A DNA stretch of 64,000 bases from Euryarchaeota archaeon RBG_13_57_23 (GTDB lineage Archaea; Thermoplasmatota; Thermoplasmata; UBA10834). The translations under genes were made by a program, and so were the position numbers. Shown here one piece after another: positions 1 through 63,763 of the stretch (its first letter is position 1; each line of letters opens with the position of its first letter). The DNA lies in contig MGVW01000035.1 of the NCBI GenBank assembly GCA_001800675.1, positions 6,731 through 70,730 of the forward strand, written 5' to 3'. The notes below the pieces were generated by a model. The model had not been told where the DNA came from. It did not search any database and saw only the letters and a program-made list of their open reading frames with translations.

Positions 1-304
1 GCCTGTAATCTGTAAGGAACTGGCTGAACTGCCCCTGAAGGGTGTACATCTCGTTGTATCTGGTGCTGGAATAGGGGTCGTCCGGGTCCAGGACGATGAT
101 CATGATCAGCTCGTGGGCTGATGCCAGGTCGTTCCCGGCCCCAGCGATGGCTTGCACGACCAGCGTCGACTCATCGTGTATCGTTTCGGCGTTGGCCTTG
201 ATCTCGTACATGCCCTGAATCGAGATCACGCTCACAACCGCTACCGGCGCTAGCGACAGACCCAAGATCACGGCAATCAGCTTTGCCGTCAAGCTCAGCC
301 TCAA
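1..304 (-). CDS. Membrane sensor resembling a methyl-accepting chemotaxis protein N-terminus (5' part only; the gene runs off the window start)
   Basis: Absent from the ORF track because it is truncated. The minus-strand frame from TTG at about 302-304 reads LRLSLTAKLIAVILGLSLAPVAVVSVISIQGMYEIKANAETIHDESTLVVQAIAGAGNDLASAHE. That is one TM helix followed by a helical sensor-like sequence, as in MCP N-termini. A GAAGGTGGTG SD-like run lies directly upstream, and the gene is divergent from cheR. Confidence 0.45.
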   Translation of the reverse strand, partial: MRLSLTAKLIAVILGLSLAPVAVVSVISIQGMYEIKANAETIHDESTLVVQAIAGAGNDLASAHELIMIIVLDPDDPYSSTRYNEMYTLQGQFSQFLTDYR

Positions 305-515
305 TGCACCACCTTCTCGCGCTCATGCAAAAGCTTCCTAGCTGGGGGTAGTTTCCAGCAGGGGGGAGCCTTGCTGTGTCTCAACATCCGTCTGGGGTTT
401 ATTAAATGATGTCGTATTCGTTTTCAACATCGATAACAAGTAGCCAGCATGATGGAAAAAGCGCATTTTCGACCCGGGTAAGGCATATCTACTGACAGAC
501 CCATAAGAGCGCCAG

Positions 516-1337
516 ATGGACATCTCAGAGCAAGATTTCGTCACCCGTGTGATGAGACATCTGTTCAGGGCCAGGGGCATAGACCTCTCGGGATACTCCC
601 AATCGTTCGTCCTGCGCAGCATGAAGAAGAGGCTGGGCAGGTCAGGGGCTGCGGACTACTCCAGCTACCTTAGCCTTCTGACACACAGCGAGGTGGAGAC
701 CAACGAGCTACTGGGTGCATTGTCCATCAATGTGACCGAGTTCTTCAGGGACAAGGGGGCCTTCGAAGGGTTTTCCTCACAGGTCATACGTCCACTCCTC
801 GCCTCCAAGATCAGGGAAGGAGGCGTGCTGCGGATTTGGAGCGCGGGCTGCGCCACGGGTCAGGAGACTTATACGCTCGCGATCTGCGTTGCCGAGGAGA
901 TCAAGAAACTCCAATGCATCTCTGCGCCAGTGGTAGGAATTCAGGGAACGGACATATCGTCGAAAGCGGTCGCGAAGGCAAAGGCAGGAGTCTACACGAA
1001 AACCGAAATGAAGGGTCTGAACGAGAAGTATCTCAATCACTACTTCGAGAAGAACGGCGATCGTTACGAAGTGGTCCAGCCTCTTCGGAAGGGTGTGAGA
1101 TTCGCAGTCGAGAACTTGCTGGATCCTCCAAGTGGCAGCTACTACGATGCCATCGTCTGCAGGAACGTCATGATCTACTTCACGCGCACGATGCACGACG
1201 TGGTCACGATGCACCTGTTCAAAGCTCTGAGGAGTGGCGGTTACCTGATGCTGGGCAGGACCGAGACGCTCATGGGGACGCCAAGGGCGAGTTTCGAGGT
1301 AGTGGACCTCGAGAACAGGATACTCAGGAAGAAGTAG
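516..1337 (+). CDS. cheR: Chemotaxis protein methyltransferase CheR
   Basis: 273 aa. It has the SAM-methyltransferase core VLRIWSAGCATGQETYTLAI and the CRNVMIYF motif, preceded by a helical CheR N-domain-like region. ATG start, TAG stop. Confidence 0.9.
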   Translation: MDISEQDFVTRVMRHLFRARGIDLSGYSQSFVLRSMKKRLGRSGAADYSSYLSLLTHSEVETNELLGALSINVTEFFRDKGAFEGFSSQVIRPLLASKIREGGVLRIWSAGCATGQETYTLAICVAEEIKKLQCISAPVVGIQGTDISSKAVAKAKAGVYTKTEMKGLNEKYLNHYFEKNGDRYEVVQPLRKGVRFAVENLLDPPSGSYYDAIVCRNVMIYFTRTMHDVVTMHLFKALRSGGYLMLGRTETLMGTPRASFEVVDLENRILRKK

Positions 1338-26336: not shown

Positions 26337-27296
26337 ATGATCAAAGAGAAAGTCAAAACCGGAATCCCGGGACTTGACCAGATGCTGGACGGCGGGCTAC
26401 TCCAAGGACGCACATACGTCATCTCGGGGACTTCTGGATCTGGCAAAACTACACTGGCGATGCAGTTCCTTCTCGAGGGCGCCAGGAACGGGGAGAGAGT
26501 ACTCTACATGGCAATCGACGAGCCCCCGAACGAAGTCAAGAGCAACATGAAATCGTTCGATTGGGACATCTCCAGGGTACAGGTTTTCGATGCGACGCCC
26601 GATGTAATGAGCTATGATAAGACACCTGTCAGGGATGTGTCGACTGAGCGAAAGGTCGTCTACTTCCAGAGCATCGGCGAGAACATCAGGAAGACCTCCG
26701 AGAGAAGCCCTGTCGACATGACCGTCAACACAATCCAAGAGCTCCTGAAACAGGAGATGAAGGTCGCGAGGTATACGAGAATCGCAGTGGATTCCCTCAC
26801 ATCGATGAGGTACTTCTACATCAAGACGAGCGAGGAGAACGCGACCTTGATGAGCTTCCTCCGACTGCTCTCCGACATAGGAGTGACATGCCTGGTCACT
26901 ATACAGCTTCCAGAGATATCCAAACCGGACGTTGAAGCGCACGTCGCTAGGGGAGAGATCAGACTGCACAAGTGGTTCGATGGCCGCGGGTTAATGCGCG
27001 GGGTGACCATAGAGAAGTACAGGGGTTCGGCTCACGACAATGAGTTGAGACAGCTGCGGATAGGCCCGCAGGGGATAGTCGTCAAGGCACCGTCACTTGA
27101 GAAACCTGACGGGCAGCCAGCAATCGACGCGGGGCCCGCTGTCGCCGAATCTGCAGCGCCAAGCGAACCTCCTCCGCCTCCGGACGAAGAGCTTCTCCCT
27201 GCCCCGCCAGCTCCTCCGCAACCTTCAAGTCCTCCGGATTCAGGCGGCAGTCTTCAAGAGCCGCCCAAACCTAGCGATGGGGGTGAGGGCACGTGA
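26337..27296 (+). CDS. KaiC-like/RecA-superfamily ATPase (single domain) with a Pro-rich C-terminal tail
   Basis: GIPGLDQMLDGGLLQGRTYVISGTSGSGKTTLAMQFL (Walker A), RIAVDSLTS (Walker B) and RGVTIEKYRGSAHD. The last ~68 aa are Pro/Ala/Ser/Glu-rich. Confidence 0.85.
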   Translation: MIKEKVKTGIPGLDQMLDGGLLQGRTYVISGTSGSGKTTLAMQFLLEGARNGERVLYMAIDEPPNEVKSNMKSFDWDISRVQVFDATPDVMSYDKTPVRDVSTERKVVYFQSIGENIRKTSERSPVDMTVNTIQELLKQEMKVARYTRIAVDSLTSMRYFYIKTSEENATLMSFLRLLSDIGVTCLVTIQLPEISKPDVEAHVARGEIRLHKWFDGRGLMRGVTIEKYRGSAHDNELRQLRIGPQGIVVKAPSLEKPDGQPAIDAGPAVAESAAPSEPPPPPDEELLPAPPAPPQPSSPPDSGGSLQEPPKPSDGGEGT

Positions 27297-28123
27297 GCGA
27301 CGAGCACGGGCCCAGAGTGAGCACGGGCATCCCCGGATTGGACGAAATGCTTCAGGGAGGACTGATCCGGAGCAGGCCTTACGTGGTCTCGGGGACCACG
27401 GGCAGCGGCAAGACGACGCTTGCAATCCAGTATTTGCACAATGGCGTGAAGAACGGCGAACGGTCTCTTCTGGTGGCCATCGACGAACCTCCTGCGGAGA
27501 TCAGGGAGAACATGAGGGCGCTAGGGTGGGATATCGGGAAGATCAGGATCCTAGATGCGCATCCCGCGGCGAGACAGTACAGCAAACGAGTATCGCTTGT
27601 CGAAGTAGCGGCGCAACGGAGCGTGGCCACACTCAGAGAGGCGGGCCCGAGTGAGAAGACCGACCAGCTGAAGAAAGCTGCACCCGATATCTCAATCCAG
27701 TCTCTCCAGCTGATGCTTAAGCAAGAACTTCAGGAAACCAGGTACTCCCGAGTTGTGATTGATTCTCTCACATCCTTGAAGAAGCTGTCCGAGACAATGG
27801 AGGATACCAACTCGAGCGTCATGTCCCTCCTGAGGTTCCTTTCAGAATCGAATGTAACGACCTTGATAGTCACGGATCTGCCGGATCCGACAGTGCTGGA
27901 ACCCGAGATATTCATCTGTAGAGGCGAGATCAGGCTTCACAAGCGCATGGTCGGCAGTAGGCTCGACAGGTGGGTCACCGTTGAGAAGTTCAGGGGCTCA
28001 TCTCACGATATCATGCCAAGGAGCATGACCATAACGGAAAAGGGCATCACGGTCGATCACAAGAAGAAGATACCGAGAGCGTCCTTGAAGGTGCTCCAGG
28101 CCTTCACGCAGTTTGCCAGGTGA
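27293..28123 (+). CDS. KaiC-like/RecA-superfamily ATPase (single domain), paralog of the preceding gene
   Basis: GIPGLDEMLQGGLIRSRPYVVSGTTGSGKTTLAIQYL, RVVIDSLTS and RWVTVEKFRGSSHD. The GTG start overlaps the upstream stop (GTGA). Confidence 0.85.
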   Translation: MSDEHGPRVSTGIPGLDEMLQGGLIRSRPYVVSGTTGSGKTTLAIQYLHNGVKNGERSLLVAIDEPPAEIRENMRALGWDIGKIRILDAHPAARQYSKRVSLVEVAAQRSVATLREAGPSEKTDQLKKAAPDISIQSLQLMLKQELQETRYSRVVIDSLTSLKKLSETMEDTNSSVMSLLRFLSESNVTTLIVTDLPDPTVLEPEIFICRGEIRLHKRMVGSRLDRWVTVEKFRGSSHDIMPRSMTITEKGITVDHKKKIPRASLKVLQAFTQFAR

Positions 28124-30580: not shown

Positions 30581-31879
30581 TTGGCATCAAAGGGACTGAC
30601 ACGGACAGGAGAAGCGTACTGCCTCTCCTGCCACCAGATGGTCGACAGGGACGCCACCAAATGCCAGGGGTGCCTGTCAGAGCTCACATCGGAGGTAAAG
30701 GCCTTCCCTTGCCCGAAATGTAAAACCGTCATAGCCCTCGGTGTATCCGAGTGTCCGACTTGCGGTCTCCGGTTCAAGGTCAAGACTATCAGACCGCGAG
30801 AAACCGCAGAGGACGATCAGTTCCTGGTCAAATTGATCGAGTGGGGAAGAGACGGGGCTGACAAGGGCACGGAGGAGACGGTCAGCCCGGCAACACCATC
30901 CTCTACTGGGACATCGCAAGCTGAGGTGCCGGTGCAGACTCCGGCGCCCAAGGCGGAGCCATCCGATATCACAAGGCTCGCGCTGCTCAAGGACAGCATC
31001 AAGGACCTCATGGCCAACCGCTCCCAGATGCTGGAACGCATGGAGAGGCGCATCGAAGAAGAGAAAGCCAGGTTGGCCAAGATCGCCGTCATGGACGAGA
31101 GCACTACTGACGCTTCACATGTCGAGGCTGAGATAGTATCACTCGCCGACGAGATGGCCGACATAACGATGCTTCAGGCCCACATGGAGGCGCTCTCAGA
31201 TGAGGTCTCTTCGCTGTTAGATTCAGTGGACATAGGCGATGAGGCGAAGCAGCGGGGCCTCGCAGCGCGCGCCCTCAAGAAGAAGCTCGAGGCCAAGGAG
31301 AAAGAGGTCGAAGAGCTCAGGTCAAAGGAAGAGCAGCTGGTCAAGCGCGAGGAGATGGTTGACCGCAAGATCCACGCCTACGCTCAGAAGAAGAAGGAGC
31401 TGGACGATCGTGAGAGCGAGCTCCAGTCCAAGCTGTCCGAGCTCGAGAACGAGAGGGCCAGACTCCAAAACCTGCACTCGGAGGCGGTCGGCGCCAGCAC
31501 CGAGGTCGAACGGGAACGGGCCAATGAGGAGTGGAAGGAGGAACAGAAAGGATTGAACCAGCGCCTCCTTGGAATGAAGGTGTCAATCACCGCGCACAGG
31601 CTTGGAAAGGACGCGGCAGAGGCGGATATGAGGAGCTTGGAGACCGACCTGGACGCAACGATCGCCAAGCTGGAGGAACAGATCGGGGCTCTGATCAGCG
31701 AGAAGGTAGACCTTCAGGCAAAGATGCAGGAAGCCACGGTCGTCGATGAGGATCTCAAGAAGCTTCTCAAGGTCCTGGACCAGATGCTTGGCCAGTTGCC
31801 CGAGGAGGCCATCGAGAAGTTCTCGAAGTCTGACGATTTCACCGTCTACGAACGCATCCTTGACAAGTTCAAAATCTGA
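30581..31879 (+). CDS. Double zinc-ribbon plus coiled-coil protein
   Basis: 432 aa with a TTG start after AAAAGGAGAG. Two identically spaced ribbons are present: C14xxC17-x10-C28xxC31 and C44xxC47-x10-C58xxC61. An acidic/Pro linker follows, then ~270 aa of heptad-like coil, then a short tail (FTVYERILDKFKI). Confidence 0.7.
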   Translation: MASKGLTRTGEAYCLSCHQMVDRDATKCQGCLSELTSEVKAFPCPKCKTVIALGVSECPTCGLRFKVKTIRPRETAEDDQFLVKLIEWGRDGADKGTEETVSPATPSSTGTSQAEVPVQTPAPKAEPSDITRLALLKDSIKDLMANRSQMLERMERRIEEEKARLAKIAVMDESTTDASHVEAEIVSLADEMADITMLQAHMEALSDEVSSLLDSVDIGDEAKQRGLAARALKKKLEAKEKEVEELRSKEEQLVKREEMVDRKIHAYAQKKKELDDRESELQSKLSELENERARLQNLHSEAVGASTEVERERANEEWKEEQKGLNQRLLGMKVSITAHRLGKDAAEADMRSLETDLDATIAKLEEQIGALISEKVDLQAKMQEATVVDEDLKKLLKVLDQMLGQLPEEAIEKFSKSDDFTVYERILDKFKI

Positions 31880-31972: not shown

Positions 31973-34900
31973 ATGGGTCTCAGAGACAAAGCGAGAGAGA
32001 GCGTTTCCAAGCCAGTCAGCCCTGCTGCTGGCGAGACTGAGACAGATCCACCGACCAAGCCGCCATTGCAGGCGCCCCTCGACGCGGTGCCCGCCCCACA
32101 GCCGGGAGCCCTTGAGCCTTCGGTAACGTATCTGGTCGCGGGAGAGAAGCCGGATCTCGCCTATTCGCTCTTCATGACCGCCTCCGCGCAGGGCATGCGG
32201 GGCCTAGTCGTTTCTCGGACGTACCCGAAGAACCTGCGGAAGGCACTGGACCTGCGAGACGCCCCGGTCTACTGGCTCACCAATGCGGTGAGCGACGAGG
32301 CGATCGGCCCTAAGGACTTGGAGCGGCTGTCGCTGGTAATCAAGAGATTCCTCGATGAGGGCGGCGGCCAGCTGGTTCTGATCGACTCGCTCGAGTATGT
32401 CATCACGAACAACAAGTTCGTGAGCGTGCTGCGGCTCGTGGAGACGATCAGAGACCTGATCGCGATTCATAAGGCTGTTGGCATAATTGCTCTGAAGTCG
32501 TCGACGCTTGAGGCATCAAAGCTGGCATCCATCCAGAGAGAGCTCGAGGTGTACTCCGCTGACAAGAGTGTTTCAGCTCCGTCTGTTCCACGCCCTCCTG
32601 CGGAAAGCCCTGTCATTGCCGAGCTCAAGCAGGACGAGCTTATGCTTGAGGCCGAACGGCTGGAGCAGCAAAAGAAGACGGTTGCGGCCGCAGCCGACAA
32701 GGTTGCCAAGGACGCCCAGAGGCTCTCGCTCGAAAGACAGGAGCTTGAGAAGGAGCGCGCCGAGGTAAGGAACACCTTGGTCCGGGTTCGTCAGACAAGG
32801 AAGGAACTCGAAGATTTCCGCATAAAGCTCACGAAAGAGGAGGCCGAGTTGACCTCCAGGGTCAGGAGTAAGTTGACCAAGGAGATGCAGGGACTCGACT
32901 CGAAGAAGGCCACGCTCGAGATGATGGAGAAGGAGATCGAGTCGAGGTACCAACAGCTCGACAGGATCGTGAGCCTCAAGACAGAGCAAAGGCTCTACGA
33001 GGTTCAGGGGGAGAAGAAGCGGCTCGAGGCTGAGAGACAGAAGCTGTCCGAGATGATGTCTCAGCTAGAGGCGGACCATACGAATCTCGAAGAACGCATC
33101 AACGAGATTCAGCAGAAGGAAATCACGCTTCAGAAATCGTCCGAGGAGGCAAGGGAGCGCGAGAAAAGGCTCCAGGAGAGGGAGCACGCCATCGCCTTGG
33201 ACAAGGTGGAATTCGAGAAGCTAAGGGCCGCAGTGGACACTGAGAAGCAAGAACTGGAACAACGTCGAAAGGGTCTGGAGGACGAGTTCGCCCGGGCCCA
33301 GGCGGAAGCCGCGAGGCTCAATTCCGATGTGACGCAGAGGGAGGAAGCCGTCACCAAGATCACTCGGGAGCTGGACATGCTCAAGTCCAAGCTCGTCGCA
33401 CAGGAGCAGATGTTGAGCGACCGGGACAGGTCCGTAGGAACGCGCTTGCAGGACATCGAGAAGCGTGAGAAAGCCCTGGCGACGCTCGAGACGGAGGCGA
33501 AGCAGCTCTTCGAGAAAGCAACGATGCTCGACCAAGCCGCTAGAACGAAGGAAGAGCACCTGACGAAGGACCGGGAGAATCTTCAAACGGATATCGACAA
33601 CCTTCGGACGGAGCTCAGCAAGCGTTTGTCAGATGTGCAGAAGCGCGAGGAAAAGCTGCGCGCGGATGAGGACCGTCTCTCCAAGGAATCGGACTCAAGG
33701 AACAAGGCACTCAAGGACCTCGAAGACCAGATGAAGGAACAGAGCGCGAGCATGGCGAAGCTGAGGGAGGCGCTCGATCAACGTGAGGCCGCCATGAAGC
33801 AGGCCGAGAGCGACATCGCTGCGGTCCGGAAGGAGGCTGAGGAGTTCGCCGCATCCGTGAACGACGAGCGAACGGCACTCGACAAGGAGATCCAGGCAGC
33901 GAGGCAGAAGGTCATAGAGGAGAGGAATTCCTTCGAGCAGGACAAGCTCGCATTCGAGAACGAGCGCAACGATGCCGAGCGCCAAATCTCTGAGGCGCAG
34001 AAGGAGATAGATGACAAGCTAGGGAAGGTCGAGGAAGAGCGCAAGGAGATGGATGAGAAGGTGCTCGCCATCGAGGAGATGCGCACCATCCTCAACCAAC
34101 GCGCGAACGACGTCGCCTCGTCTGAGCTGAGGATGGCGGAGGAGCGGGTCACTATCGATTCCATGAGGCGCGAGATGACCCGAAAGGCCGAGGAGATAGA
34201 GTCTCTCGAGCGGGACTTCACTTTGAAGCAACAGAACCTGCAAGGGTCCGCAGAGCTTGTCCAGAAATCCAAGGCCCAGGTTGATGAGAAGGAGCGGGTG
34301 TTGAGGGAACAGCTCCTGGTGACCGAGAACGAGCGCACGGAGCTGGAGAGCAAGCGAGCATCATTGGACACCGAAGAGGCGGAGTTCCAGAAGTCGAAGG
34401 CAGAGGTAGAGGAACTCCAGGAGCAAATCACAACTCAAAGGATCGAGCTGGAAGAATGGAATAAACAGCTCGACGAGATATCCGATTCACTCGATTCAAG
34501 AAAGAATGAGATCGCGGCCAAAGAAGCGGCCGTAAGATCAGTCGTTGACGAGAACACAAGGGCTAGGGAACAGCTCGCTGCGGAGAAGCAGAGGTTGGAG
34601 GAGGATTTCAACTCCAAGTTCTCCGAGCTGGAGCAGAGGCGTAATGCGCTGGAGGCGGAGTCTGCGTCGCTCGCGACCGTCAGGAACAAGATGACGGTTA
34701 CCGAGCAGGAGGCCGGCAAGAGGGAAGAGAAACAGGTCGCGATGCAGAATGCGCTAGCGGAGCGCGAACAGAAGATTTCGGATACGGAGACGGCTGTCCA
34801 GACTGCGAAGAAGGCCATCGCGGAACAGGCTGAAATCATACGGGCGGACCGACAATCGGCGGAACAGCAGAAGGCCGAGATGGCCAAGGGCTGGGAAACG

Positions 34901-37261
34901 CTCCAGAAAGAGCGGGACACAGTCCAACAGGAGATCGACCGGAGCTGGGAAGACCTAGAGTCTGCGAAGAAGGCCCTGGAAGACAAGGCAAAGGACCTCG
35001 AGAAAACGGAAGAGGCTTTATCCGGGAGGAACAAGGAGCTCAATGCCGGACTCGCAGACATCTCCGAGAGGGAGAAGGACGTTGCGTCACAGAATCTGAA
35101 GTTTGAGGATGTCAAGCAGCAGCTTGCGTCTAGGGATTCAGACCTCCAGAGACGCGCGATCGAGCTGGAGGCGTTCAAGAACGACTTAACGCAGAGAGAA
35201 CAGCAGTCCCTGGCCAGCATAGAGGCCGCCCAGAAAGTCCTCGACAACGAGCGCATGACGATAGCTTCTGAGAGAACCGTTGTAGGAGACGAGAAGGCGC
35301 ACCTTGAAGCGCAGGCGGCCGGCTTCGTGACGCGCGAGAAGGAGCTGGAGCAGGCAATCACGATGCTCGAGCGGAAGACCCAGGAGATAGAGGAAGCTGA
35401 CCAGGACCTCAAACGGAAGGAATCGGAGATCCTGGGACAGGCAAAGCTCCTCGGTGAGAAGGACGCCTCCATCAAGCTTCTCGATCAGAAGAACCGCCAG
35501 GAGTTGGATGCTAGGAAGGCGGAGATTGACAGCAGAGCTGCCGAGACAGATAGGCTGCAGAATGATGTCAGGCAATCGGAGACCGCTCTGCGGCAGAAGG
35601 AGGCGTCTCTCGCAGCCAAGGAGAAGGCCTTTGCGGAAGTCGAAGAGAAAACTCGTTCGGAGTTGGAGGCGGCAATCACAGACGCCGACACGATGAAATC
35701 CCAGCTTGATGGAGTTGCGGAACACCTGAGGGGTCGGGAAGTGGAGATCGCGAATACGGAGAAGGTTCTCGTTGAGCGCGAGACCACTCTATCTGAGCTG
35801 GAGACTGAGACGAGAAAGCAGCTGGATTCGCGTCTTGCGGACATCGAGTCCCGAGAGAAGAATCTTCAGAGGGTCGCCAAGGAGCAGGCGGCCAAGGCAA
35901 CGCAGATCGCGGGCATTGAGAAGGCACTCGGGGAGAGAGAGTACGCGTTGTCGGAGGTGGAGAAGGGCTCCAAGCAGGAGATACAGGCACTAACGTTAAA
36001 GCTAGACGATGAGAGAACAAGGCTGGAAGCCGCTCTAGAGGACTTGAAGGGCCAGAAGGCCGAGGTCTTGCAGAAGGAGAAGGCGTTGGCTGCCCTGCAG
36101 ACTTCCCTCGAGACGGCAGAGGCGAAGTTCAATCAGGACAGAGATGCTCGGCTGGCTGAGCTTCAGGACGTCACCACAATGCTCGAGCAGGGTCAGGCGC
36201 AGCTCGAGCGCGACAAGGCTGCACTGGATGCCGCAACCGTTTCTTTTGAGAAGGAGAAGAGCGGCATTGCGCAACAGAAGGCGACCGTGGAGCACGAGCG
36301 CGCGAATTCAGAGGAGCTGCGAGCGTCGCTAGCGAACCTGCAGCGGGAACTGGGGGAAAGGGATTCGGCCATGAAGGAGAAGGAGGCAGATGTTCACTCC
36401 AGGCTTCAGGATGCAGATACCAGACTCGCTGGAATCGCCCGCCGGGAGTCAGAGATTGCTGAGGTCCAGAGCAGGTTCGAGAGCCAGGGCATGGCACTTG
36501 CCATGAGGGAGCAGGAAGCGAACAAGGCGCTCGACGAATACAAGGACATTCTTGACGAGATCGCTAAGCAGAAGGACGGGTTGGACGCGCGCGAAGTCGA
36601 GATCAAGACGAGGACCAACAAACTGGAGGAGAGCGCGATCGAGGTCGAGCTGCTTCACGAGGACATTGAGAAAGAGCGGCAATTGCTTGCGCAGAAAGAT
36701 GCTGGGCTGGAACAGCTTCGAGCGGAGCTTGAGAAGTGGCGTGTAGACCTGATGGAGAAGCGGGCTCAGCTGGAGGAAGACAGCAAGAAGCGGATATCTG
36801 AGATCGTCCGCGAGGCGGCCTCGAAGAAGGAGACGGCGACTTCTGCGACCCAAGAGCAGCTCTCGAGGAGAGAGATAGAGCTCAGATCGCGCGAGGAGAG
36901 GCTTCGGGCAAGGGAGATGGATCTGGAGACCAGTGAGCGGACCGTGGCAGTCGAATTCGAGAAGCTTGAGCGTGAGCGTGCCGAGGTCAAGGACCTCTGG
37001 GACAAAGTAGAGGCTTCTAAGAAGGGAATGACCATCGTGCTCGATGAGAGATCGATCAAGGTGCTCGAGGACAGGAAGACAGAGCTGGATAGCGCCTACC
37101 TGAAGCTCTCCGACAGGGAGGAAAACCTGCGCAAGGATGAGCAGCGGCTCGAAGACGAGCGCCTGAGATTGGATGCAATCAGAGAGGAGCTGGAAGACCT
37201 AGCTAGGGTCCTCAGGCCGAAGGAAGATGAAATCAAGAAGTCGGACGGCTCAGCTGCCTGA
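31973..37261 (+). CDS. Giant (1,762 aa) protein: Pro-rich leader, DUF835-like P-loop-less KaiC/RecA-like head, very long coiled coil
   Basis: A single uninterrupted ORF whose shadow ORFs on other frames are Ser/Arg-rich junk. The head is aa ~50-195. The remainder is E/K/R/L/A/Q-rich heptad-like sequence. Confidence 0.85.
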   Translation: MGLRDKARESVSKPVSPAAGETETDPPTKPPLQAPLDAVPAPQPGALEPSVTYLVAGEKPDLAYSLFMTASAQGMRGLVVSRTYPKNLRKALDLRDAPVYWLTNAVSDEAIGPKDLERLSLVIKRFLDEGGGQLVLIDSLEYVITNNKFVSVLRLVETIRDLIAIHKAVGIIALKSSTLEASKLASIQRELEVYSADKSVSAPSVPRPPAESPVIAELKQDELMLEAERLEQQKKTVAAAADKVAKDAQRLSLERQELEKERAEVRNTLVRVRQTRKELEDFRIKLTKEEAELTSRVRSKLTKEMQGLDSKKATLEMMEKEIESRYQQLDRIVSLKTEQRLYEVQGEKKRLEAERQKLSEMMSQLEADHTNLEERINEIQQKEITLQKSSEEAREREKRLQEREHAIALDKVEFEKLRAAVDTEKQELEQRRKGLEDEFARAQAEAARLNSDVTQREEAVTKITRELDMLKSKLVAQEQMLSDRDRSVGTRLQDIEKREKALATLETEAKQLFEKATMLDQAARTKEEHLTKDRENLQTDIDNLRTELSKRLSDVQKREEKLRADEDRLSKESDSRNKALKDLEDQMKEQSASMAKLREALDQREAAMKQAESDIAAVRKEAEEFAASVNDERTALDKEIQAARQKVIEERNSFEQDKLAFENERNDAERQISEAQKEIDDKLGKVEEERKEMDEKVLAIEEMRTILNQRANDVASSELRMAEERVTIDSMRREMTRKAEEIESLERDFTLKQQNLQGSAELVQKSKAQVDEKERVLREQLLVTENERTELESKRASLDTEEAEFQKSKAEVEELQEQITTQRIELEEWNKQLDEISDSLDSRKNEIAAKEAAVRSVVDENTRAREQLAAEKQRLEEDFNSKFSELEQRRNALEAESASLATVRNKMTVTEQEAGKREEKQVAMQNALAEREQKISDTETAVQTAKKAIAEQAEIIRADRQSAEQQKAEMAKGWETLQKERDTVQQEIDRSWEDLESAKKALEDKAKDLEKTEEALSGRNKELNAGLADISEREKDVASQNLKFEDVKQQLASRDSDLQRRAIELEAFKNDLTQREQQSLASIEAAQKVLDNERMTIASERTVVGDEKAHLEAQAAGFVTREKELEQAITMLERKTQEIEEADQDLKRKESEILGQAKLLGEKDASIKLLDQKNRQELDARKAEIDSRAAETDRLQNDVRQSETALRQKEASLAAKEKAFAEVEEKTRSELEAAITDADTMKSQLDGVAEHLRGREVEIANTEKVLVERETTLSELETETRKQLDSRLADIESREKNLQRVAKEQAAKATQIAGIEKALGEREYALSEVEKGSKQEIQALTLKLDDERTRLEAALEDLKGQKAEVLQKEKALAALQTSLETAEAKFNQDRDARLAELQDVTTMLEQGQAQLERDKAALDAATVSFEKEKSGIAQQKATVEHERANSEELRASLANLQRELGERDSAMKEKEADVHSRLQDADTRLAGIARRESEIAEVQSRFESQGMALAMREQEANKALDEYKDILDEIAKQKDGLDAREVEIKTRTNKLEESAIEVELLHEDIEKERQLLAQKDAGLEQLRAELEKWRVDLMEKRAQLEEDSKKRISEIVREAASKKETATSATQEQLSRREIELRSREERLRAREMDLETSERTVAVEFEKLERERAEVKDLWDKVEASKKGMTIVLDERSIKVLEDRKTELDSAYLKLSDREENLRKDEQRLEDERLRLDAIREELEDLARVLRPKEDEIKKSDGSAA
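32120..32557 (+). other. DUF835-like module (degenerate KaiC/RecA-like fold lacking Walker A) of the giant protein
   Basis: VTYLVAGEKPDLAYSLFMTASAQGMRGLVVSRTYP...GGGQLVLIDSLEYVITNNKFVSVLRLVETIRDL. It aligns block-for-block with the KaiC-like ATPases at 26337 and 27293, but GEKPD replaces GTSGSGKT. Confidence 0.6.
32615..37225 (+). other. About 1,530-residue coiled-coil tract with no Pro or Cys
   Basis: By eye there is no Pro or Cys between aa ~215 and ~1748. The tract has recurrent motifs such as RLQDIEKREKAL, RLSDVQKREEKL, RLADIESREKNL and GLADISEREKDV. Confidence 0.7.
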
Positions 37262-57493: not shown

Positions 57494-57528
57494 CTCGCCA
57501 TCAATATGGCCTGTGCGAAGGATTGGTC

Positions 57529-60500
57529 ATGCGCCAAGTAGACGAGAATTACTCCCCCGTCCAGTTGGAAAAAGACGTAAGGGCGCAGTGGGACAAGGCC
57601 CGCACTTATGAGAAGGTCAAGAAGGCCCTCGAGTCGGGTAAGACATACTACTTCGTCGACGGCCCCCCCTACACCACGGGCTCGATCCATGTGGGCACTG
57701 CTTGGAACAAGATCCTGAAAGACACGATGGTGAGGTACAGGCGCATGCAGGGCCTCCAGGTGAGGGACCAACCCGGGTTCGACATGCACGGGCTCCCCAT
57801 CGAGGTCCGGGTCGAGCAATCCATGGGCATCAAGAGCAAGAAGGAGATCGAAGCCCAGGGGATCGACAAATTCATCAGCACCTGCAGAGACTATGCGATA
57901 CGCTTCAAAGCCAAGATGACCGAGGAATTCAAGATGCTCGGGGTCTGGCTCGACTGGGACAAGCCCTATCTAACTGTAGATCCCAACTATATCGCCTCGG
58001 TCTGGTGGACTCTCAAGCAGGCCTACGACAAGCAGCTTCTGACGATGGATTTCAGGGTTCTACCCTGGTGTCCTCGATGTGAAACCGCCCTTGCGGAAGC
58101 GGAGATCGAGTACTGGGACGAGACTGACCCGTCCATCTACGTCAAGTTCCCCGTTGAGGGGGAAGTCAACACATACTTGCTGGTCTGGACGACCACACCT
58201 TGGACCATCCCTGGAAACCTCGCGGCTGCCGTTCACCCTGAATTCATGTATGCGTTCGTTCGCGTGAAGCGTGGCATGCTGGAGGAGACTCTCATCGTCC
58301 TCGAAGAGAAGCTGGAGGAGCTCAAGAAGATTGCGGGGATCGAGGAGATGACGGTCCTCGACCGGACCAAGGGCTCCGAGTTGGTCGGGGTCGTGTACAA
58401 GCATCCACTAACGGACCTGGTGCCGTATCAGAGTCAGGTCAAGGGGGATGCGGCCCACGCTGTCCTCTCATCCGAGACGGTAACGAACGAGAGCACGGGC
58501 ATCGTTCACATCGCCCCGGGTCACGGTCCTGAGGACTTCGAGCTGGGCAAGGAGTACGGCCTGGAACCGTTCTCCCCCGTGGACGAGACCGGCTCCTACA
58601 CCGAGGACGCGGGGAAGCACTACGCCGGCAAGAACGTCCGAGAGGCCAACTCCATGGTCATAAGCGACCTCGTCGAACGGGGCGCGATGTTCCATCAGGC
58701 CAACATCACTCACAGATACGGTCACTGCTGGAGATGTCATCAGCCAATCATCTACCGCATCACCGACCAGTGGTTTCTCAAGGTCAGCGAGATCAAGGAG
58801 CAGCTCAACGCAGCCAACGCCCAGGTCAAATGGTACCCCGAATGGGCAGGAGCCAGCAGAGAGCGCGATTGGATCGCGAACGCGAGGGACTGGTGTATCA
58901 GCAGGCAGAGGTACTGGGGCACCCCTCTTCCGATATGGAACTGCGAGTGCGGCAATTTCAGGCTCGTATCTTCTCTAGAAGAGCTCAAGACCGCCAAGGG
59001 ATACGTCGAGGGCATGGACTTGCACAGGCCCTGGATCGACAAGCTGTCTTTCACTTGCGAGAAGTGCGGCAAGACAATGACCAGAGTGCCCGACGTGCTC
59101 GATGTCTGGTTCGATGCGGGCGTGTGTTCATGGGCCTCACTAGGCTACCCCGCGAGCAAGGAGGAGTTCCAGAAGTGGTGGCCCTGCCAGTGGATCACGG
59201 AGGCCCACGATCAGACGCGAGGATGGTTCTACTCGCAGCTCGTGACCGGTGTCGTTGCCTTTGGCAGGTCTCCGTACGACTCCGTGCTCATGCACGGTTG
59301 GGCGCTAACGCCACAGGGGACGCCCATGTCCAAGAGCGAGGGCACGGCCATCGATCCGATTCACATAGTGAACACCCTTGGCGCGGATTCGCTTAGACTA
59401 TACCTTCTGAAATCGAACGCGCCATGGGAGGATGTCCCGTTCCAGCCAGAAGGCGTGAAGGCTGCGAACCGGACATTGAACATCCTGTGGAACGTCTACA
59501 AGTTCGCAACGCTATACATGTCAATAGACAAGTTCGACCCCGCAACAGTTCACCTCGAGCACATCGCGGAATCTCTGAGGCCAGAGGACAGATGGATGCT
59601 CTCGAGGACCGAGACCCTGAAGAAGGAGGTCTCGGAGGCCATCGAGTCTTACGAGCTGCACAGGGCTGCAAGGGCAATCGAAGTCTTCGTCAACGAGGAC
59701 CTCTCCCGATGGTATGTGAAGCTCGTAAGGGACCGGCTGTGGAAAGAGGGCGATGATCGCGATAAGACTGCCGCGTTCAAGGTCCTCCACGAGGCACTGA
59801 GCACTGCAGTAGCCGTTATGGCGCCTATGACGCCGCATATCACCGAGGCAATGCACGCTAACCTCAACGGGAAGCCGGAGAGCGTGCACATGCTCTCCTG
59901 GCCAGGCTTCGACCCGAGATGGATAGACACGAAGTTGGAGGAGGGCATGCTCATGGTGCGTGAGATCTCCGAGCTCATCGCGCGTATCAGGCAGGACTCC
60001 AACATCAACCTCAGGTGGCCCCTGAAGCGCATAGTCATAAAAGCGCAGACGCAGGAGGTTGCCGACTCGATCACGGTTCTCAAGGATGCGCTCCTGTCGC
60101 AGAACAACATTAAGGAACTGCACATCGTGCCCATGGGCGAGGAATGGGACGAGATGATACTCGGCGTCGTCCCCAACCCGAACGCAATTGGCAAGGTCTA
60201 CAGGCAGTGGTCGAGCAAGATAGCGGTCATGCTCAAGAACCGGCCCGCAAGGACCATCAAGGCTGGTATAGACAAGGGCGAGTACTCGTTGGGCATCGAA
60301 GGTCAATTGGTCAAGATACTTCCGAACATGGTTTCGTTCACATCGACGGTGCCCCCGGAGGTCATGGGGGCGCAGTTCGCCAAGGGAGAGGTCTACATAG
60401 ACCTCGAGCAGACCCCCGCCTTGGAAGCCGAAGGGTTCTCGAGGGAGATGATCAGGCGCATACAGCAGATGAGAAAGGATATGAAGCTCAACGTCGAGGA

Positions 60501-61788
60501 ATTCGTCAAGGTTGATATCCAGTGCTCAAAGCGCGTGGAAGGATTCCTCGAGACATGGAAGGACAAGGTGGCGCGCGAAACCCGGGCGCGGGCCTTCGAA
60601 GTGGTTGACTCCGTCAAAGGAGACTACATCGTCGAATGGAATGTCGACACCGAAGCCCTTGTCATCGGAGTCAGCTCGATGAAGGTGAAGCAGAACATCG
60701 ATATGCTGGCCGGCATACAGGGAATGACTCCAGAAAAGGCGCTCAGGATAGTCGAAGCCGGGTTCTCAACGTCCGCGCTGATCAAGAGTGCAAGTGCCGA
60801 GGACCTCTCACTGGTCGACGGGATCTCCAAGCTCGACGCCAAGAGGATTCATGACCACTTCCACCAGGGGGAGGAAGCTCCTCCAGCGGCACCAGCTCCT
60901 GGTCCGGCACCGCCCGCCCAGCCAGTTCCACAGCCGGAGGCCCCACGGGCGCCAGCGCCTGTGCAGGCACCACCACCTGCTCCGGAGTCTGTTGTCCAGG
61001 CGCCTGCTCCGGCTCAAGTGCCAGCTCCAGAGCCGCCACCGGTTCAGCAGGCCCCAGCGCCTGCACCTGTCCCCGCACCGCCACAAGAACCGTTCATCGA
61101 AACCCTGCGCAGGGTCGAGGGGATAACGCCAGAGGCCGCAAACGCGGTCTATGACGCAGGATACACCACTTCCCAATCGTTGAAGAACGCTACCGTCCCG
61201 GACCTCGTGAAGGTGAAGGGCGTCTCCGACAGGGCTGCCACACTGCTGATCGAGCACTTCATGAGCGAGCCCGCGGTCGCAGCGGGCAGGCCGGTCAAGG
61301 CGGAGATAAGATCCGCCCCGCAGGTCCAGGAACTGGAGAAATCGTTCTCCTACCTGGTAGAAGAGGACAAGCCTGAGACATCTTACCAGCTCTTCATGAA
61401 TTCTCTGAAGAAAGGGATGAGGGGCTACTGCGTAACTAGGAACTACCCCGCGAAGATACGGACGAAATTCGACCTGGGGGAAACGCCAGTGGTCTGGCTC
61501 TCGAATGTCGGTCGCGAGAACACCATCAGGCCCAAGGATCTCGAGAAGCTGAGTCTCTCGCTGGAGCAGTTCCTGTCGCAGCCGGGTGGAGGAGTCGTGC
61601 TCCTCGACGGACTGGAGTACCTTATCACCAACAACAACTTCATCACGGTCTTGAGGCTCATACAGTCACTTCGGGACCAGGTCGCCATAAATCAATCCAT
61701 CCTCCTGATGGCGGTGAACAGGTCCACGCTCGAGAGCCACCAGCTGAATTTGCTGGAGCGCGAAGTGGATTATACGATCACCGGATAA
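57529..61788 (+). CDS. ileS: Isoleucyl-tRNA synthetase with a 364-aa non-canonical C-terminal extension
   Basis: The class I core carries PPYTTGSIHVGTAWNK (HIGH-type) and GTPMSKSEG (KMSKS), plus the CP1 editing domain and Zn-cluster Cys pairs. The core ends near aa ~1056, but the ORF continues to 1,419 aa. Confidence 0.9.
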   Translation: MRQVDENYSPVQLEKDVRAQWDKARTYEKVKKALESGKTYYFVDGPPYTTGSIHVGTAWNKILKDTMVRYRRMQGLQVRDQPGFDMHGLPIEVRVEQSMGIKSKKEIEAQGIDKFISTCRDYAIRFKAKMTEEFKMLGVWLDWDKPYLTVDPNYIASVWWTLKQAYDKQLLTMDFRVLPWCPRCETALAEAEIEYWDETDPSIYVKFPVEGEVNTYLLVWTTTPWTIPGNLAAAVHPEFMYAFVRVKRGMLEETLIVLEEKLEELKKIAGIEEMTVLDRTKGSELVGVVYKHPLTDLVPYQSQVKGDAAHAVLSSETVTNESTGIVHIAPGHGPEDFELGKEYGLEPFSPVDETGSYTEDAGKHYAGKNVREANSMVISDLVERGAMFHQANITHRYGHCWRCHQPIIYRITDQWFLKVSEIKEQLNAANAQVKWYPEWAGASRERDWIANARDWCISRQRYWGTPLPIWNCECGNFRLVSSLEELKTAKGYVEGMDLHRPWIDKLSFTCEKCGKTMTRVPDVLDVWFDAGVCSWASLGYPASKEEFQKWWPCQWITEAHDQTRGWFYSQLVTGVVAFGRSPYDSVLMHGWALTPQGTPMSKSEGTAIDPIHIVNTLGADSLRLYLLKSNAPWEDVPFQPEGVKAANRTLNILWNVYKFATLYMSIDKFDPATVHLEHIAESLRPEDRWMLSRTETLKKEVSEAIESYELHRAARAIEVFVNEDLSRWYVKLVRDRLWKEGDDRDKTAAFKVLHEALSTAVAVMAPMTPHITEAMHANLNGKPESVHMLSWPGFDPRWIDTKLEEGMLMVREISELIARIRQDSNINLRWPLKRIVIKAQTQEVADSITVLKDALLSQNNIKELHIVPMGEEWDEMILGVVPNPNAIGKVYRQWSSKIAVMLKNRPARTIKAGIDKGEYSLGIEGQLVKILPNMVSFTSTVPPEVMGAQFAKGEVYIDLEQTPALEAEGFSREMIRRIQQMRKDMKLNVEEFVKVDIQCSKRVEGFLETWKDKVARETRARAFEVVDSVKGDYIVEWNVDTEALVIGVSSMKVKQNIDMLAGIQGMTPEKALRIVEAGFSTSALIKSASAEDLSLVDGISKLDAKRIHDHFHQGEEAPPAAPAPGPAPPAQPVPQPEAPRAPAPVQAPPPAPESVVQAPAPAQVPAPEPPPVQQAPAPAPVPAPPQEPFIETLRRVEGITPEAANAVYDAGYTTSQSLKNATVPDLVKVKGVSDRAATLLIEHFMSEPAVAAGRPVKAEIRSAPQVQELEKSFSYLVEEDKPETSYQLFMNSLKKGMRGYCVTRNYPAKIRTKFDLGETPVVWLSNVGRENTIRPKDLEKLSLSLEQFLSQPGGGVVLLDGLEYLITNNNFITVLRLIQSLRDQVAINQSILLMAVNRSTLESHQLNLLEREVDYTITG
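60694..61785 (+). other. IleRS C-terminal extension: HhH pair, Pro-rich linker, HhH pair, DUF835-like module
   Basis: HhH-1 at 60703-60861, linker at 60865-61092, HhH-2 at 61093-61260, DUF835-like module at 61342-61785 (SYLVEEDKPETSYQLFMNSLKKGMRGYCVTRNYP...GGGVVLLDGLEYLITNNNFITVLRLIQSLRD). Confidence 0.7.
60865..61092 (+). repeat. Low-complexity Ala/Pro/Gln/Val-rich coding tract (76 aa linker)
   Basis: QGEEAPPAAPAPGPAPPAQPVPQPEAPRAPAPVQAPPPAPESVVQAPAPAQVPAPEPPPVQQAPAPAPVPAPPQEP. It is an imperfect GCN/CCN-rich DNA repeat and is in frame. Confidence 0.8.
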
Positions 61789-61805: not shown

Positions 61806-62585
61806 TCACAGGAGCCTGAGGATTATCTGTTGCAGTCCAGGGACGGTGTCGAACCTCGACACATCCCCCGGTTGTATCCATTCGAGAGATTGATGCTCCC
61901 AGTCGGTCCGGACATGGCGATCCTTCACATCGAACAGGAACGGGTGGACGCACCAGATGGTCGGGCCGTCCCTGAAGCACTGCGTGTCGATGTGTTTTGA
62001 GAGTCTCGCTCTGTCCCGTCCGATTTCCTCCTTCAGCTCACGCCTTGCAGCCGACTCGTCCGACTCTCCGCTCTCGATGAACCCGGACACGCCGGCCCAC
62101 ATGCCATTGTATGAGCCGACCTTGTCGCTCCTCTGGAGAAGCAGTATTCTCCCGGCGTTGCGGACGATGCACGTCACAACATGCCTCTCGTCTAACCCTA
62201 TGATCTCGACTGTTCCCCTGTTGGCATCCACAGACACATCGTCTCCAGTTCTCAGAAGGCCGACATCGATTCCGTCGACCATCGGCACATCGGCAATTAT
62301 GGCTCCCGTGGCCACTATCGGCTCTGCCGAGTTGTTGATTATCGCTGCCGGAGCCTTCTTGTTCAATCTCAGCTGGTACAGCGCGTAGGAGCCGACTGTG
62401 CTCCCCTTTCCGAACGGGAAGCAGAAGATCCTCCCGGAGATGCTCTCTCCTCTGGACTCGCACTCCTCATCCATGATTCTTCCAGTTAGCGGGTCAACGC
62501 CACCGAGGAACGAGATCGGGCTCTTGCAGACGACCGCCTTCCCCGAGGCCATCCCTCCCCTGATCCGCCTGCCCACAAACTTCAT
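61806..62585 (-). CDS. Fusion: aconitase-X swivel subunit (DUF126; putative phosphomevalonate dehydratase small subunit) plus Nudix hydrolase
   Basis: The N-terminal ~130 aa read SPISFLGGVDPLTG...FPFGKGSTVGSYALY (DUF126 pattern). The C-terminal ~125 aa carry a canonical Nudix box, GFIESGESDESAARRELKEEIG. The ATG at 62585 forms an ATGA overlap with the upstream gene. Confidence 0.8.
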   Translation of the reverse strand: MKFVGRRIRGGMASGKAVVCKSPISFLGGVDPLTGRIMDEECESRGESISGRIFCFPFGKGSTVGSYALYQLRLNKKAPAAIINNSAEPIVATGAIIADVPMVDGIDVGLLRTGDDVSVDANRGTVEIIGLDERHVVTCIVRNAGRILLLQRSDKVGSYNGMWAGVSGFIESGESDESAARRELKEEIGRDRARLSKHIDTQCFRDGPTIWCVHPFLFDVKDRHVRTDWEHQSLEWIQPGDVSRFDTVPGLQQIILRLL

Positions 62586-63763
62586 CTTGAGATCGCCTCC
62601 AGGAGAGCTGTCGTTGTCCGGAAGGACGCGCGTTGCCTGCCCAAGGTAGGCAAGTAGACCATCGCCTTTCCGCTGTCGGAGGCGGTCCGCTTGTACATCG
62701 ACTCGATTGGCGCGACTACCATGCACGTGTCGCATAGCACCTTTCCGAATTTCCGAAGGATTCCGATTTCCTTGGGGCAACTTCTGTAAACGTTTCTGGA
62801 GGTGCAGAACCAGACATCGCTGCTATTGGCTGGTTTCCGTCGCTTGAGATAACTGGCCATGCGCTTGATCTCGTTTCTTGAGCAGTGAGGGCACCCGATG
62901 GCCACGAGGTCCCAGTCATCATCCCCTCTCAGCCCGTCCGATAGCGACTCGAGCTCAGATATGGGCAGGGCGACGCGCTCTTCAATGAGAGAGGTGTCCA
63001 CCCTCTCCCGGTCGCCAGGCGCAGCGAACTCGTACATCGACACGGCACCGGTTGCTGCCATGGCGGCTCCGAATGCCTTGTGCTGGTCGGCAGTGAGCCG
63101 AAGGCCCGGCAGATACGGTATCCGCTTCCCCGCGATCTTGCCAACCAAGAACCCCGCCAGAGGTGCCAATCCCTCAGGAATCTCCTGAATGTCGATCCTA
63201 ACTCTGGGCGCCCTGTTCTCTGCAAGGTGCAAGCCGTATTCAGCTGTCTTTCCTATTATTGCCGCCGCCAGCGCGGATGGCCCGCCCTCCCTGTTGGTCA
63301 TGGCACCTAGATACGAGTTCGCGAACACGGTGGCTGATGATTCCGCCCAGGCTATGTGCTGACCCCCGCGAGGCCTGTTCCCAGCTAGATACGGCGTGCA
63401 AGTGTACAGTGGTTCAACGCCAAGAGACGCGTACGCTCTGACTATCCTCTCTTGCTTGGCGTGGAACTGCGAGCCTACCCCCATGGTCTTCCAGCGCCTC
63501 ACGTCCATGCCCAGGGGGTTCAATGAGGCCCTCACCGTGACCCTGGCCTGCTCGGAGAAGTCCTCGAGGAACTTGATGCCAGCGTCTCCAATCGTCTTGA
63601 AGGACGCTCCTGAGACCTGGGCGGAGGAGATCGGTATCAATCTCTTGGCTCGGTAGATGTCGCCGAGAGCGACCAGCAGCTCCATCGCCTTCTGTCTGCC
63701 GTGTCCTTCCTCGCCGACGAGAATGCGCTCTTCTCGGGCGGTTAGATGCATCGAACTGGTCAT
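62582..63763 (-). CDS. Aconitase-X catalytic subunit (DUF521; putative phosphomevalonate dehydratase large subunit)
   Basis: 393 aa. Its size and sequence pattern fit the DUF521 family, and it is translationally coupled to the DUF126-containing gene downstream. Confidence 0.75.
   Translation of the reverse strand: MTSSMHLTAREERILVGEEGHGRQKAMELLVALGDIYRAKRLIPISSAQVSGASFKTIGDAGIKFLEDFSEQARVTVRASLNPLGMDVRRWKTMGVGSQFHAKQERIVRAYASLGVEPLYTCTPYLAGNRPRGGQHIAWAESSATVFANSYLGAMTNREGGPSALAAAIIGKTAEYGLHLAENRAPRVRIDIQEIPEGLAPLAGFLVGKIAGKRIPYLPGLRLTADQHKAFGAAMAATGAVSMYEFAAPGDRERVDTSLIEERVALPISELESLSDGLRGDDDWDLVAIGCPHCSRNEIKRMASYLKRRKPANSSDVWFCTSRNVYRSCPKEIGILRKFGKVLCDTCMVVAPIESMYKRTASDSGKAMVYLPTLGRQRASFRTTTALLEAISR

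Follow-up and report, generated by a model that had tools for sequence, protein, structure and literature searches.

A helix-hairpin-helix and DUF835 extension on the isoleucyl-tRNA synthetase of Thermoplasmatota archaea

A 64,000-nucleotide stretch of the genome of Euryarchaeota archaeon RBG_13_57_23 (contig MGVW01000035.1; hereafter the window) encodes an isoleucyl-tRNA synthetase (IleRS, gene ileS) extended by a C-terminal tail of helix-hairpin-helix (HhH) domains and a DUF835 domain. The open reading frame (ORF) starts with TTG, encodes 1421 residues and is uninterrupted by a stop codon or frame change (Table 1). An earlier note on this DNA, written from the sequence alone, had described a synthetase core complete to about residue 1056 and then a 364-residue in-frame extension; Pfam, the NCBIfam model TIGR00392 and the length of unfused IleRS bear this description out. 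The order given there for the tail, namely an HhH pair, a Pro-rich linker, a second HhH pair and DUF835, likewise agrees with Pfam and with an AlphaFold2 (AF2) model.

The synthetase core and its tail

The ileS equivalog model TIGR00392, with a cut-off of 621.4 bits, gave the whole protein a score of 968.7 bits, which places it in the IleRS family. The Rossmann catalytic domain displays a HIGH-type HVGT (residues 56–59) and PMSKS (residues 601–605), and the HxGT variant of HIGH is also found in unfused archaeal IleRS. The CP1 editing motifs TTTPWT and GIVHIAPGHGPEDF were intact in alignment, as was WCISRQR. The core is under purifying selection, with a ratio of nonsynonymous to synonymous substitution rates (dN/dS) of 0.034 relative to the nearest genome, Euryarchaeota archaeon RBG_19FT_COMBO_56_21 (locus L007, dS about 0.8), which served as reference for all such values here. 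Because unfused IleRS with a DUF5915 domain are only 1036–1071 residues long, the 364 residues encoded from position 60694 onward are a true extension. The identity of the protein's parts is near certain and, judged by its sequence, the window protein is a complete, selectively constrained and catalytically intact IleRS of an uncultured Thermoplasmatota archaeon.

Two stretches of the tail matched the HHH_5 family at 70–74 bits (gathering threshold 27, E 2e-19). Each was modeled as five helices with a predicted local distance difference test score (pLDDT) above 90, as expected of (HhH)2 domains, and the two are 38% identical to each other. HhH2 also locally matches the N-terminal part of the RadA models NF003301 (positions 5–58) and TIGR02236 (positions 2–51). 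The 76-residue Ala/Pro/Gln linker between them, already noticed in the sequence, is predicted to be disordered (pLDDT 46–54, thus below 55 throughout) and is encoded by DNA with a GC content of up to 65%. The linker is also overlapped by two ORFs on the minus strand, 100 and 149 residues long, which are most likely shadow ORFs of GC-rich, low-complexity coding sequence rather than genes.

The Pfam match to DUF835 (residues 1282–1414) had an E value of 7e-36 and a score of 123.5 bits, well above the gathering threshold of 33.1. Profile searching, which the earlier note had proposed for the tail, found both signals, HHH_5 and DUF835, above threshold. The AF2 model of isolated DUF835 (pLDDT 91, predicted template modeling score 0.88) is a six-stranded alpha/beta fold whose best Foldseek matches belong to the KaiC family, with query TM-scores (TMq) of 0.64–0.71 and E values of 5e-6 to 3e-4. 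These include FlaH/ArlH (4yds, E 5e-6, TMq 0.69; 4wia), PH0284 (2dr3), PH0250 (2ekd) and cyanobacterial KaiC. Single-sequence and profile searches of Protein Data Bank sequences with DUF835 returned nothing meaningful, and the kinship was seen by fold comparison only. The KaiC ATPase family PF06745 gave no match at E values up to 1.

The Walker A pattern [AG]xxxxGK[ST], or indeed any GK[ST], was absent from all 117 tails of active orthologues (116 full-length fusions, described below, and the window protein), which upholds the view of the tail as carrying a P-loop-less module of the RecA superfamily. A Walker-B-like hhhLDG[LI]EYL, in the window protein hhhLDGLEYL, was kept in all 117. DUF835 is predicted to be unable to bind ATP in the manner of Walker ATPases because its P-loop is lost. 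DUF835 of the window protein therefore resembles KaiC in its modeled fold alone and falls outside the KaiC ATPase family. Galperin et al. (2018, PMC5847659) have already given the domain the name inactivated KaiC (iKaiC) and describe it as an output domain in response regulators of archaea.

The tail as a whole had been called RadA-like, a term that holds for its layout and not for its parts. Foldseek searches with the whole tail returned Rad51/RadA as best matches (E 2e-6 over 250–290 columns), covering both N-terminal domain and core, because HhH2 plus DUF835 mimics the arrangement of a RadA N-terminal domain followed by its RecA-superfamily alpha/beta core. However, the RadA models TIGR02236 and NF003301 scored just 28–32 bits against cut-offs of 361 and 259, and were matched over model positions 2–58 only, which make up the HhH N-terminal domain. 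DUF835 also differs from a RadA-type ATPase core in lacking Walker A and in its length (about 150 versus about 230 residues), and taken alone it superposes better on KaiC and FlaH than on RadA. The resemblance to RadA is one of layout only, an (HhH)2 domain followed by a RecA-fold domain.

Table 1. Coordinates of the fusion gene, its domains and other features of the window.
Feature	Residues	Position in window	Strand	Basis or remark
IleRS-DUF835 ORF	1-1421	57523..61788	+	TTG start
IleRS core	1-1056	57523..60690	+	Pfam, TIGR00392, intact motifs
tRNA-synt_1	21-632			Pfam
Anticodon_1 (PF08264)	689-836			Pfam
DUF5915 (PF19302), C-terminal domain of archaeal/eukaryotic-type IleRS	862-1051			Pfam
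HhH1, first (HhH)2 domain, directly after the IleRS C-terminal domain	1060-1112	60700..60858	+	PF14520 HHH_5
First linker, Pro/Ala/Gln-rich, flexible, 76 residues	1115-1190	60865..61092	+	Low pLDDT, no predicted secondary structure
HhH2, second (HhH)2 domain, RadA N-terminal-domain type	~1193-1246	61099..61260	+	PF14520
Second linker, short	1249-1271	61267..61335	+	pLDDT <50 at tail residues 198-206
DUF835 / inactivated KaiC-like (iKaiC)	1272-1421	61336..61785	+	PF05763; stop codon 61786-61788
Probable shadow ORFs (100 and 149 residues)		60782-61257	-	Overlap first linker
Two KaiC-like ATPase genes, 4-nt overlap		26337-27296 and 27293-28123	+	PF06745, E 6e-44 and 4e-48
Double-zinc-ribbon protein gene		30581-31879		Directly upstream of giant DUF835 gene
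Giant DUF835 protein, 1762 residues	DUF835 at 61-191	31973..37261	+	Pfam
AcnX large subunit and AcnX swivel-NUDIX fusion		61806-62780 and 62582-63763	-	PF04412; PF01989 + PF00293

Distribution and constraint of the fusion

Relatives were taken as the best 120 matches to the IleRS core alone, with core identities of 94 to 56%. Full-length fusions of 1277–1446 residues with DUF835 at the end accounted for 116 of them. The remaining four relatives were shorter (829–1216 residues); at least two lie on contigs below 6 kb and one still has DUF835. Public records of the fusions, from metagenome-assembled genomes of Thermoplasmata, Methanomassiliicoccales or Methanobacteriota, bear only the name 'isoleucine--tRNA ligase'. 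A scan of species-representative genomes with the tail peptides RPKDLEKL[SN] and EYLITNNN identified relatives in 184 of them. At about 57 of 80 loci inspected, IleRS core and DUF835 occupied one stop-free frame of 1314–1497 codons, and the rest were cut at contig ends or came from frameshift-rich long-read assemblies. Closed chromosomes with the fusion include OY970070.1, CP070748.1, CP070732.1, CP070736.1, OW818644.1 and OY968769.1. Far from being a one-off, the fusion is the form that IleRS usually takes in much of the Thermoplasmatota.

Conservation is uneven along the protein. Among the 116 full-length fusions, median identity to the window protein was 88% for DUF835 (minimum 61%) versus 73% for the IleRS core, 39% for each of HhH1 and HhH2, and 17% for the first linker, which varies in length among orthologues and always stays in frame. 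Values of dN/dS follow the same order: 0.023 for DUF835 versus 0.034 for the core, then 0.10 for HhH2, 0.12 for HhH1 and 0.26 for the linker, indicating purifying selection over the whole tail. DUF835 is the best-conserved part of the protein and under tighter constraint than the enzyme core; its invariant motifs are WLSNV..E..IRPKDLEKLS and EYLITNNNF. HhH1 is present in 114 of the 117 active orthologues and two HhH domains in 91, with additional CxxC zinc ribbons in 27. Some orthologues carry DUF835 without any HhH domain (P0340 of Ca. Sysuiplasma acidicola, 1228 residues, and P0245 and P0157, likewise of Ca. Sysuiplasma) and others have acidic low-complexity inserts of 500–1100 residues, which bring proteins up to 2329 residues. 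The HhH domains are accessory, being poorly conserved, missing in some orthologues and joined by zinc ribbons in others. Hence DUF835 is the constant partner of IleRS; HhH domains, zinc ribbons and linker are variable spacers.

A stand-alone HhH-DUF835 gene next to ileS in some other genome had been envisaged as the unfused counterpart. No true example adjoining ileS was found, and the apparent cases were gene-call fragments or frameshifts: P0050 lies within an intact 1439-residue ORF, P0006 follows a single frameshift, and P0041 and P0073 stem from frameshifted assemblies. One locus departs from the usual arrangement. On a 944-kb contig of GCA_041320395.1 (L001, 6001–7836), a truncated gene of 611 residues begins at the counterpart of IleRS residue 769. 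It retains the last part of the anticodon-binding domain, followed by DUF5915, two HhH domains and a DUF835 domain. The gene precedes the NUDIX/AcnX genes as usual, and an opposite-strand EamA transporter gene occupies the position of the catalytic part. Rearrangement, gene splitting or misassembly may account for this copy.

Gene order around ileS is conserved as FEN1, ileS, NUDIX/AcnX-swivel and AcnX. In the window, the genes downstream on the opposite strand encode the large subunit of AcnX and a fusion of the AcnX swivel domain with a NUDIX domain (Table 1), and the same swivel-NUDIX fusion follows ileS at L001, L003 and L004. AcnX is a dehydratase in the mevalonate pathway of archaea, and the NUDIX fold is also that of type 1 isopentenyl diphosphate isomerase. 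The swivel-NUDIX fusion may thus join two steps of isoprenoid synthesis.

DUF835 in other proteins and in IleRS paralogues

DUF835 of the window protein, used as a HMMER query against 1.84 billion representative proteins, yielded 2905 matches, 103 of them below an E value of 1e-30. Partner domains were sought with Pfam in 73 of the nearest DUF835 proteins that are not IleRS. The most frequent was HisKA_7TM (12 of 73), followed by PAS domains of several families (about 8), GAF (7), V4R (5), CBS (3) and REC (2). Response regulators combining REC with DUF835 have been described (PMC5847659). Many DUF835 proteins have a receptor-like layout by a crude hydropathy scan, with a signal or transmembrane segment, a large ectodomain, a transmembrane segment and DUF835, and ten further DUF835 proteins scanned singly were either blank in Pfam or contained ectodomain-type parts (PEGA, CARDB, TPR). 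Since it lies C-terminal to sensor modules in these proteins, DUF835 usually stands where a transmitter would. The 150 nearest DUF835 representatives included neither a translation factor nor a synthetase other than IleRS.

A hidden Markov model scan of the six-frame translation detected one other DUF835 in the window, at the head of a giant protein. The two domains are 47% identical, close to the 45% that the earlier note had counted by hand. The remaining 1550 or so residues of the giant protein are rich in Glu, Lys, Gln, Arg and Leu, coiled-coil-like and without a Pfam match; relatives with a similar N-terminal DUF835 are P0330 (1329 residues) and P0341 (1378 residues). About 4 kb upstream of the giant gene are two adjacent genes for KaiC-like ATPases. 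The giant protein may be a partner or scaffold of a DUF835 assembly, and the KaiC-like ATPases could serve as hubs of a DUF835 network. A double-zinc-ribbon protein is encoded immediately before the giant gene.

Beyond the active orthologues, DUF835 occurs in IleRS-like proteins without an intact active site. Thirteen of these, of about 1290–1500 residues and including P0237, P0251 and P0257, form class C. HIGH and KMSKS are missing from all of them, as are WCISRQR and DVWFD from the seven in the first alignment. Class C proteins retain the anticodon-binding domain, DUF5915, HhH and DUF835. Relative to the window protein they are 25–30% identical in the core versus 48–55% in DUF835. Within the class, mean identity was 0.30–0.33 for the catalytic and editing parts, 0.44 for the anticodon-binding domain, 0.50 for DUF5915, 0.52 for HhH1 and 0.55 for DUF835. 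As the tRNA-binding half, HhH and DUF835 persist without catalysis, the role of the tail is probably not simply to aid aminoacylation. A search for further homologues with the class C profile was dominated by ValRS matches, and it brought no more than about seven additional class C proteins. One class C cluster is named 'class I tRNA ligase family protein' (Ca. Thermoplasmatota) by NCBI, and motif-less paralogues of this kind should not carry the name IleRS.

Class C genes reside at loci different from that of ileS (L087, 7497–11747; L090, 8001–12140; L091, 5815–9954; encoding P0257, P0372/P0237 and relatives). At L090 and L091 the class C gene lies beside a gene for archaeosine tRNA-guanine transglycosylase, followed by a stand-alone gene for an 82-residue AsnC-type RAM domain. 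RAM domains bind branched-chain amino acids in other systems.

A second group (class B; for example P0223, P0225, P0226, P0227 and P0233) comprises giant IleRS-like DUF835 proteins of 1436–2329 residues in which KMSKS is degenerate or missing. They have long acidic linkers and repeated HhH/zinc-ribbon units and are annotated as isoleucine--tRNA ligase. The gene for P0223 (L088/L089, 8001–13322) adjoins genes for Rpb7, Spt4, S24e and S27, with a KaiC-like gene about 7.5 kb upstream.

A possible link between IleRS and DUF835 assemblies

We tentatively favor a model in which the tail couples IleRS, most likely its tRNA-Ile-binding state, to a DUF835/KaiC-like signaling assembly, with IleRS as the sensor. 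DUF835 would act as a protein-protein signaling or assembly module, and IleRS, chiefly its tRNA-binding C-terminal half together with HhH1, would stand where other DUF835 proteins have a sensor. Occupancy or charging state of the synthetase, with respect to tRNA-Ile or isoleucine, would be relayed along the flexible tail to DUF835, which would dock on KaiC-like proteins or further DUF835 proteins through the ring or filament contacts characteristic of the fold. The HhH domains would contribute non-specific contacts with nucleic acid, such as tRNA, and the tail would thus be a coupling device and not a catalytic aid. Domain order and the dead paralogues are our reasons for favoring IleRS as sensor. 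Tethering to a KaiC-like/DUF835 assembly had been suggested at the outset from the sequence, and it stays the best reading on the basis of domain company, fold and conservation.

Several observations weigh against this model. A partner of DUF835 has been demonstrated neither here nor in the literature we found. The dead paralogues are rare, amounting to about a dozen clusters at 90% identity. Conserved neighbors of ileS are of the housekeeping kind (FEN1, NUDIX/AcnX), with no gene-neighborhood link between ileS and KaiC-like genes. The order of domains is circumstantial evidence for sensor-to-transmitter logic, and information may flow either way, with IleRS as sensor or as a regulated or localized target.

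The reverse direction, which we regard as possible if doubtful, makes DUF835 a docking tag by which a DUF835/KaiC-like assembly localizes, oligomerizes or modulates IleRS. The same conservation data and the KaiC-like, oligomerizing fold are also accounted for by such a tag, tethers typically have long flexible linkers, the 1762-residue DUF835/coiled-coil protein of the window is scaffold-like and many DUF835 proteins are membrane-anchored. The assembly could include that giant protein or DUF835 membrane receptors, and by analogy the tag may be an archaeal counterpart of the appendages that build multi-synthetase complexes. However, paralogues that have lost HIGH and KMSKS and kept the tRNA-binding half with the tail are not readily explained in this way, and the lack of a second synthetase or translation factor among the nearest DUF835 proteins gives no pointer to a multi-synthetase assembly.

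That the tail serves in cis as a tRNA-binding helper is unlikely. Its task would be to strengthen tRNA-Ile binding or to keep the tRNA in place for editing or channeling, like that of domains of the Arc1p/EMAPII/Trbp111 or C-Ala type. (HhH)2 domains bind nucleic-acid backbones non-specifically, and HhH1 directly follows the anticodon-contacting C-terminal domain in nearly all orthologues. Appended C-terminal domains of other synthetases bind both tRNA and DNA (PMC8887476). Yet the HhH domains are weakly conserved and lacking in several lineages, whereas the most conserved part is DUF835, which has no known nucleic-acid-binding role and elsewhere accompanies sensor domains and not RNA-binding proteins; moreover, unfused archaeal IleRS functions without such a helper. 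The strength of constraint on DUF835 is hard to reconcile with a mere solubility or tRNA-affinity tag.

Very improbable, in our view, is a module resembling a RadA paralogue, through which IleRS would moonlight in recombination or repair, loading on DNA by its HhH domains and modulating RadA filaments as Rad51 paralogues do. The whole-tail Foldseek matches to Rad51/RadA, the local NCBIfam matches to the RadA N-terminal domain and FEN1 as conserved upstream neighbor are consistent with this idea. Against it stand the closer kinship of DUF835 alone to KaiC/FlaH, RadA model matches confined to some 55 HhH residues and far below cut-off, the lack of Walker A, the company of signaling rather than repair domains among DUF835 relatives, and the replacement or loss of HhH in some lineages. 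Finally, an artefact joining ileS to a separate HhH-DUF835 gene by a missed stop, frameshift or chimeric assembly, which a GC-rich, low-complexity and thus error-prone linker and the separate 'proteins' of 240–630 residues in some public records might suggest, is refuted in practice by the single open frame in some 57 independent assemblies, the 116 full-length orthologues, selection across junction and linker, and the tracing of those 'proteins' to intact 1439-residue ORFs or to single frameshifts in draft or long-read assemblies.

Several known systems resemble the fusion in part. iKaiC output domains (PMC5847659) share with the tail the family PF05763, a C-terminal position behind an input-type module, a KaiC-like fold without P-loop and occurrence in Thermoplasmata. 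The window protein differs from them in that its N-terminal partner is an essential translation enzyme and not a REC, PAS, GAF or 7TM sensor, in its interposed HhH domains and long disordered linker, and in belonging to an unusually conserved sub-family. FlaH/ArlH, PH0284 and PH0250, the best structural matches of DUF835, are oligomerizing regulatory proteins; these bind ATP by a P-loop, which DUF835 lacks, and share no detectable sequence similarity with it. IleRS with other extra domains are also known, namely the NCBIfam family NF040702 'ileS_w_GNAT' and IleRS/His_Phos_1 fusions (P0398, P0418), but their appended domains and taxa are different. NCBIfam has no model for the IleRS-DUF835 variant.

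In eukaryotic cytoplasmic synthetases, UNE-I repeats (at the C-terminus of IleRS), WHEP, EMAPII and GST-like domains build the multi-synthetase complex. The window protein is likewise a class I housekeeping synthetase with C-terminal non-catalytic modules on flexible linkers. However, the folds are unrelated, the host is an archaeon and no second synthetase with a DUF835 tag was found; a search of the tail for WHEP, EMAPII, GST-like and UNE-I homology gave no Pfam match at E values up to 1. We found no literature linking IleRS with DUF835, KaiC or HhH, and an earlier passing mention is possible in the work that defined iKaiC, reportedly that of Makarova et al. in 2017. A single paper in the literature searched deals with DUF835 (PMC5847659), and it does not mention synthetases. 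What is new is a DUF835/iKaiC module with IleRS as its partner, appended-domain synthetases and iKaiC output modules being known.

A bolder form of the coupling model, which we consider speculative and rather improbable, takes IleRS-DUF835 and its dead paralogues as the input arm of an archaeal sensor of amino-acid starvation or tRNA charging, in which binding of uncharged tRNA-Ile to the half made up of anticodon-binding domain, DUF5915 and HhH would be relayed by the inactive KaiC-like domain to KaiC-like ATPase hubs. In GCN2, a HisRS-like domain that has lost catalysis is fused to a protein kinase and detects uncharged tRNA. The class C proteins, as known from sequence, offer an analogy, since they combine the loss of HIGH and KMSKS with a retained tRNA-binding half and a fused domain of signaling type. 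The window protein itself differs from GCN2 in being catalytically intact and in having an inactive KaiC-like fold as output domain in place of a kinase. If true, such a sensor would be functionally analogous to GCN2 or to the stringent response in archaea that, to our knowledge, have neither.

Interaction domains appended to synthetases are regarded as an innovation chiefly of eukaryotes. In these archaea, an essential synthetase carries a tail of this kind lineage-wide, and DUF835 in the tail is more tightly constrained than the enzyme core. This architecture is hidden in hundreds of public records named 'isoleucine--tRNA ligase'. The fusion is soluble, has an activity that can be assayed and comes with naturally dead paralogues, and so provides a handle on what DUF835 binds and on amino-acid and tRNA sensing in archaea. 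Computational work has led to the proposal that KaiC-like proteins are archaeal signaling hubs, and the fusion connects this proposed network directly to the translation apparatus.

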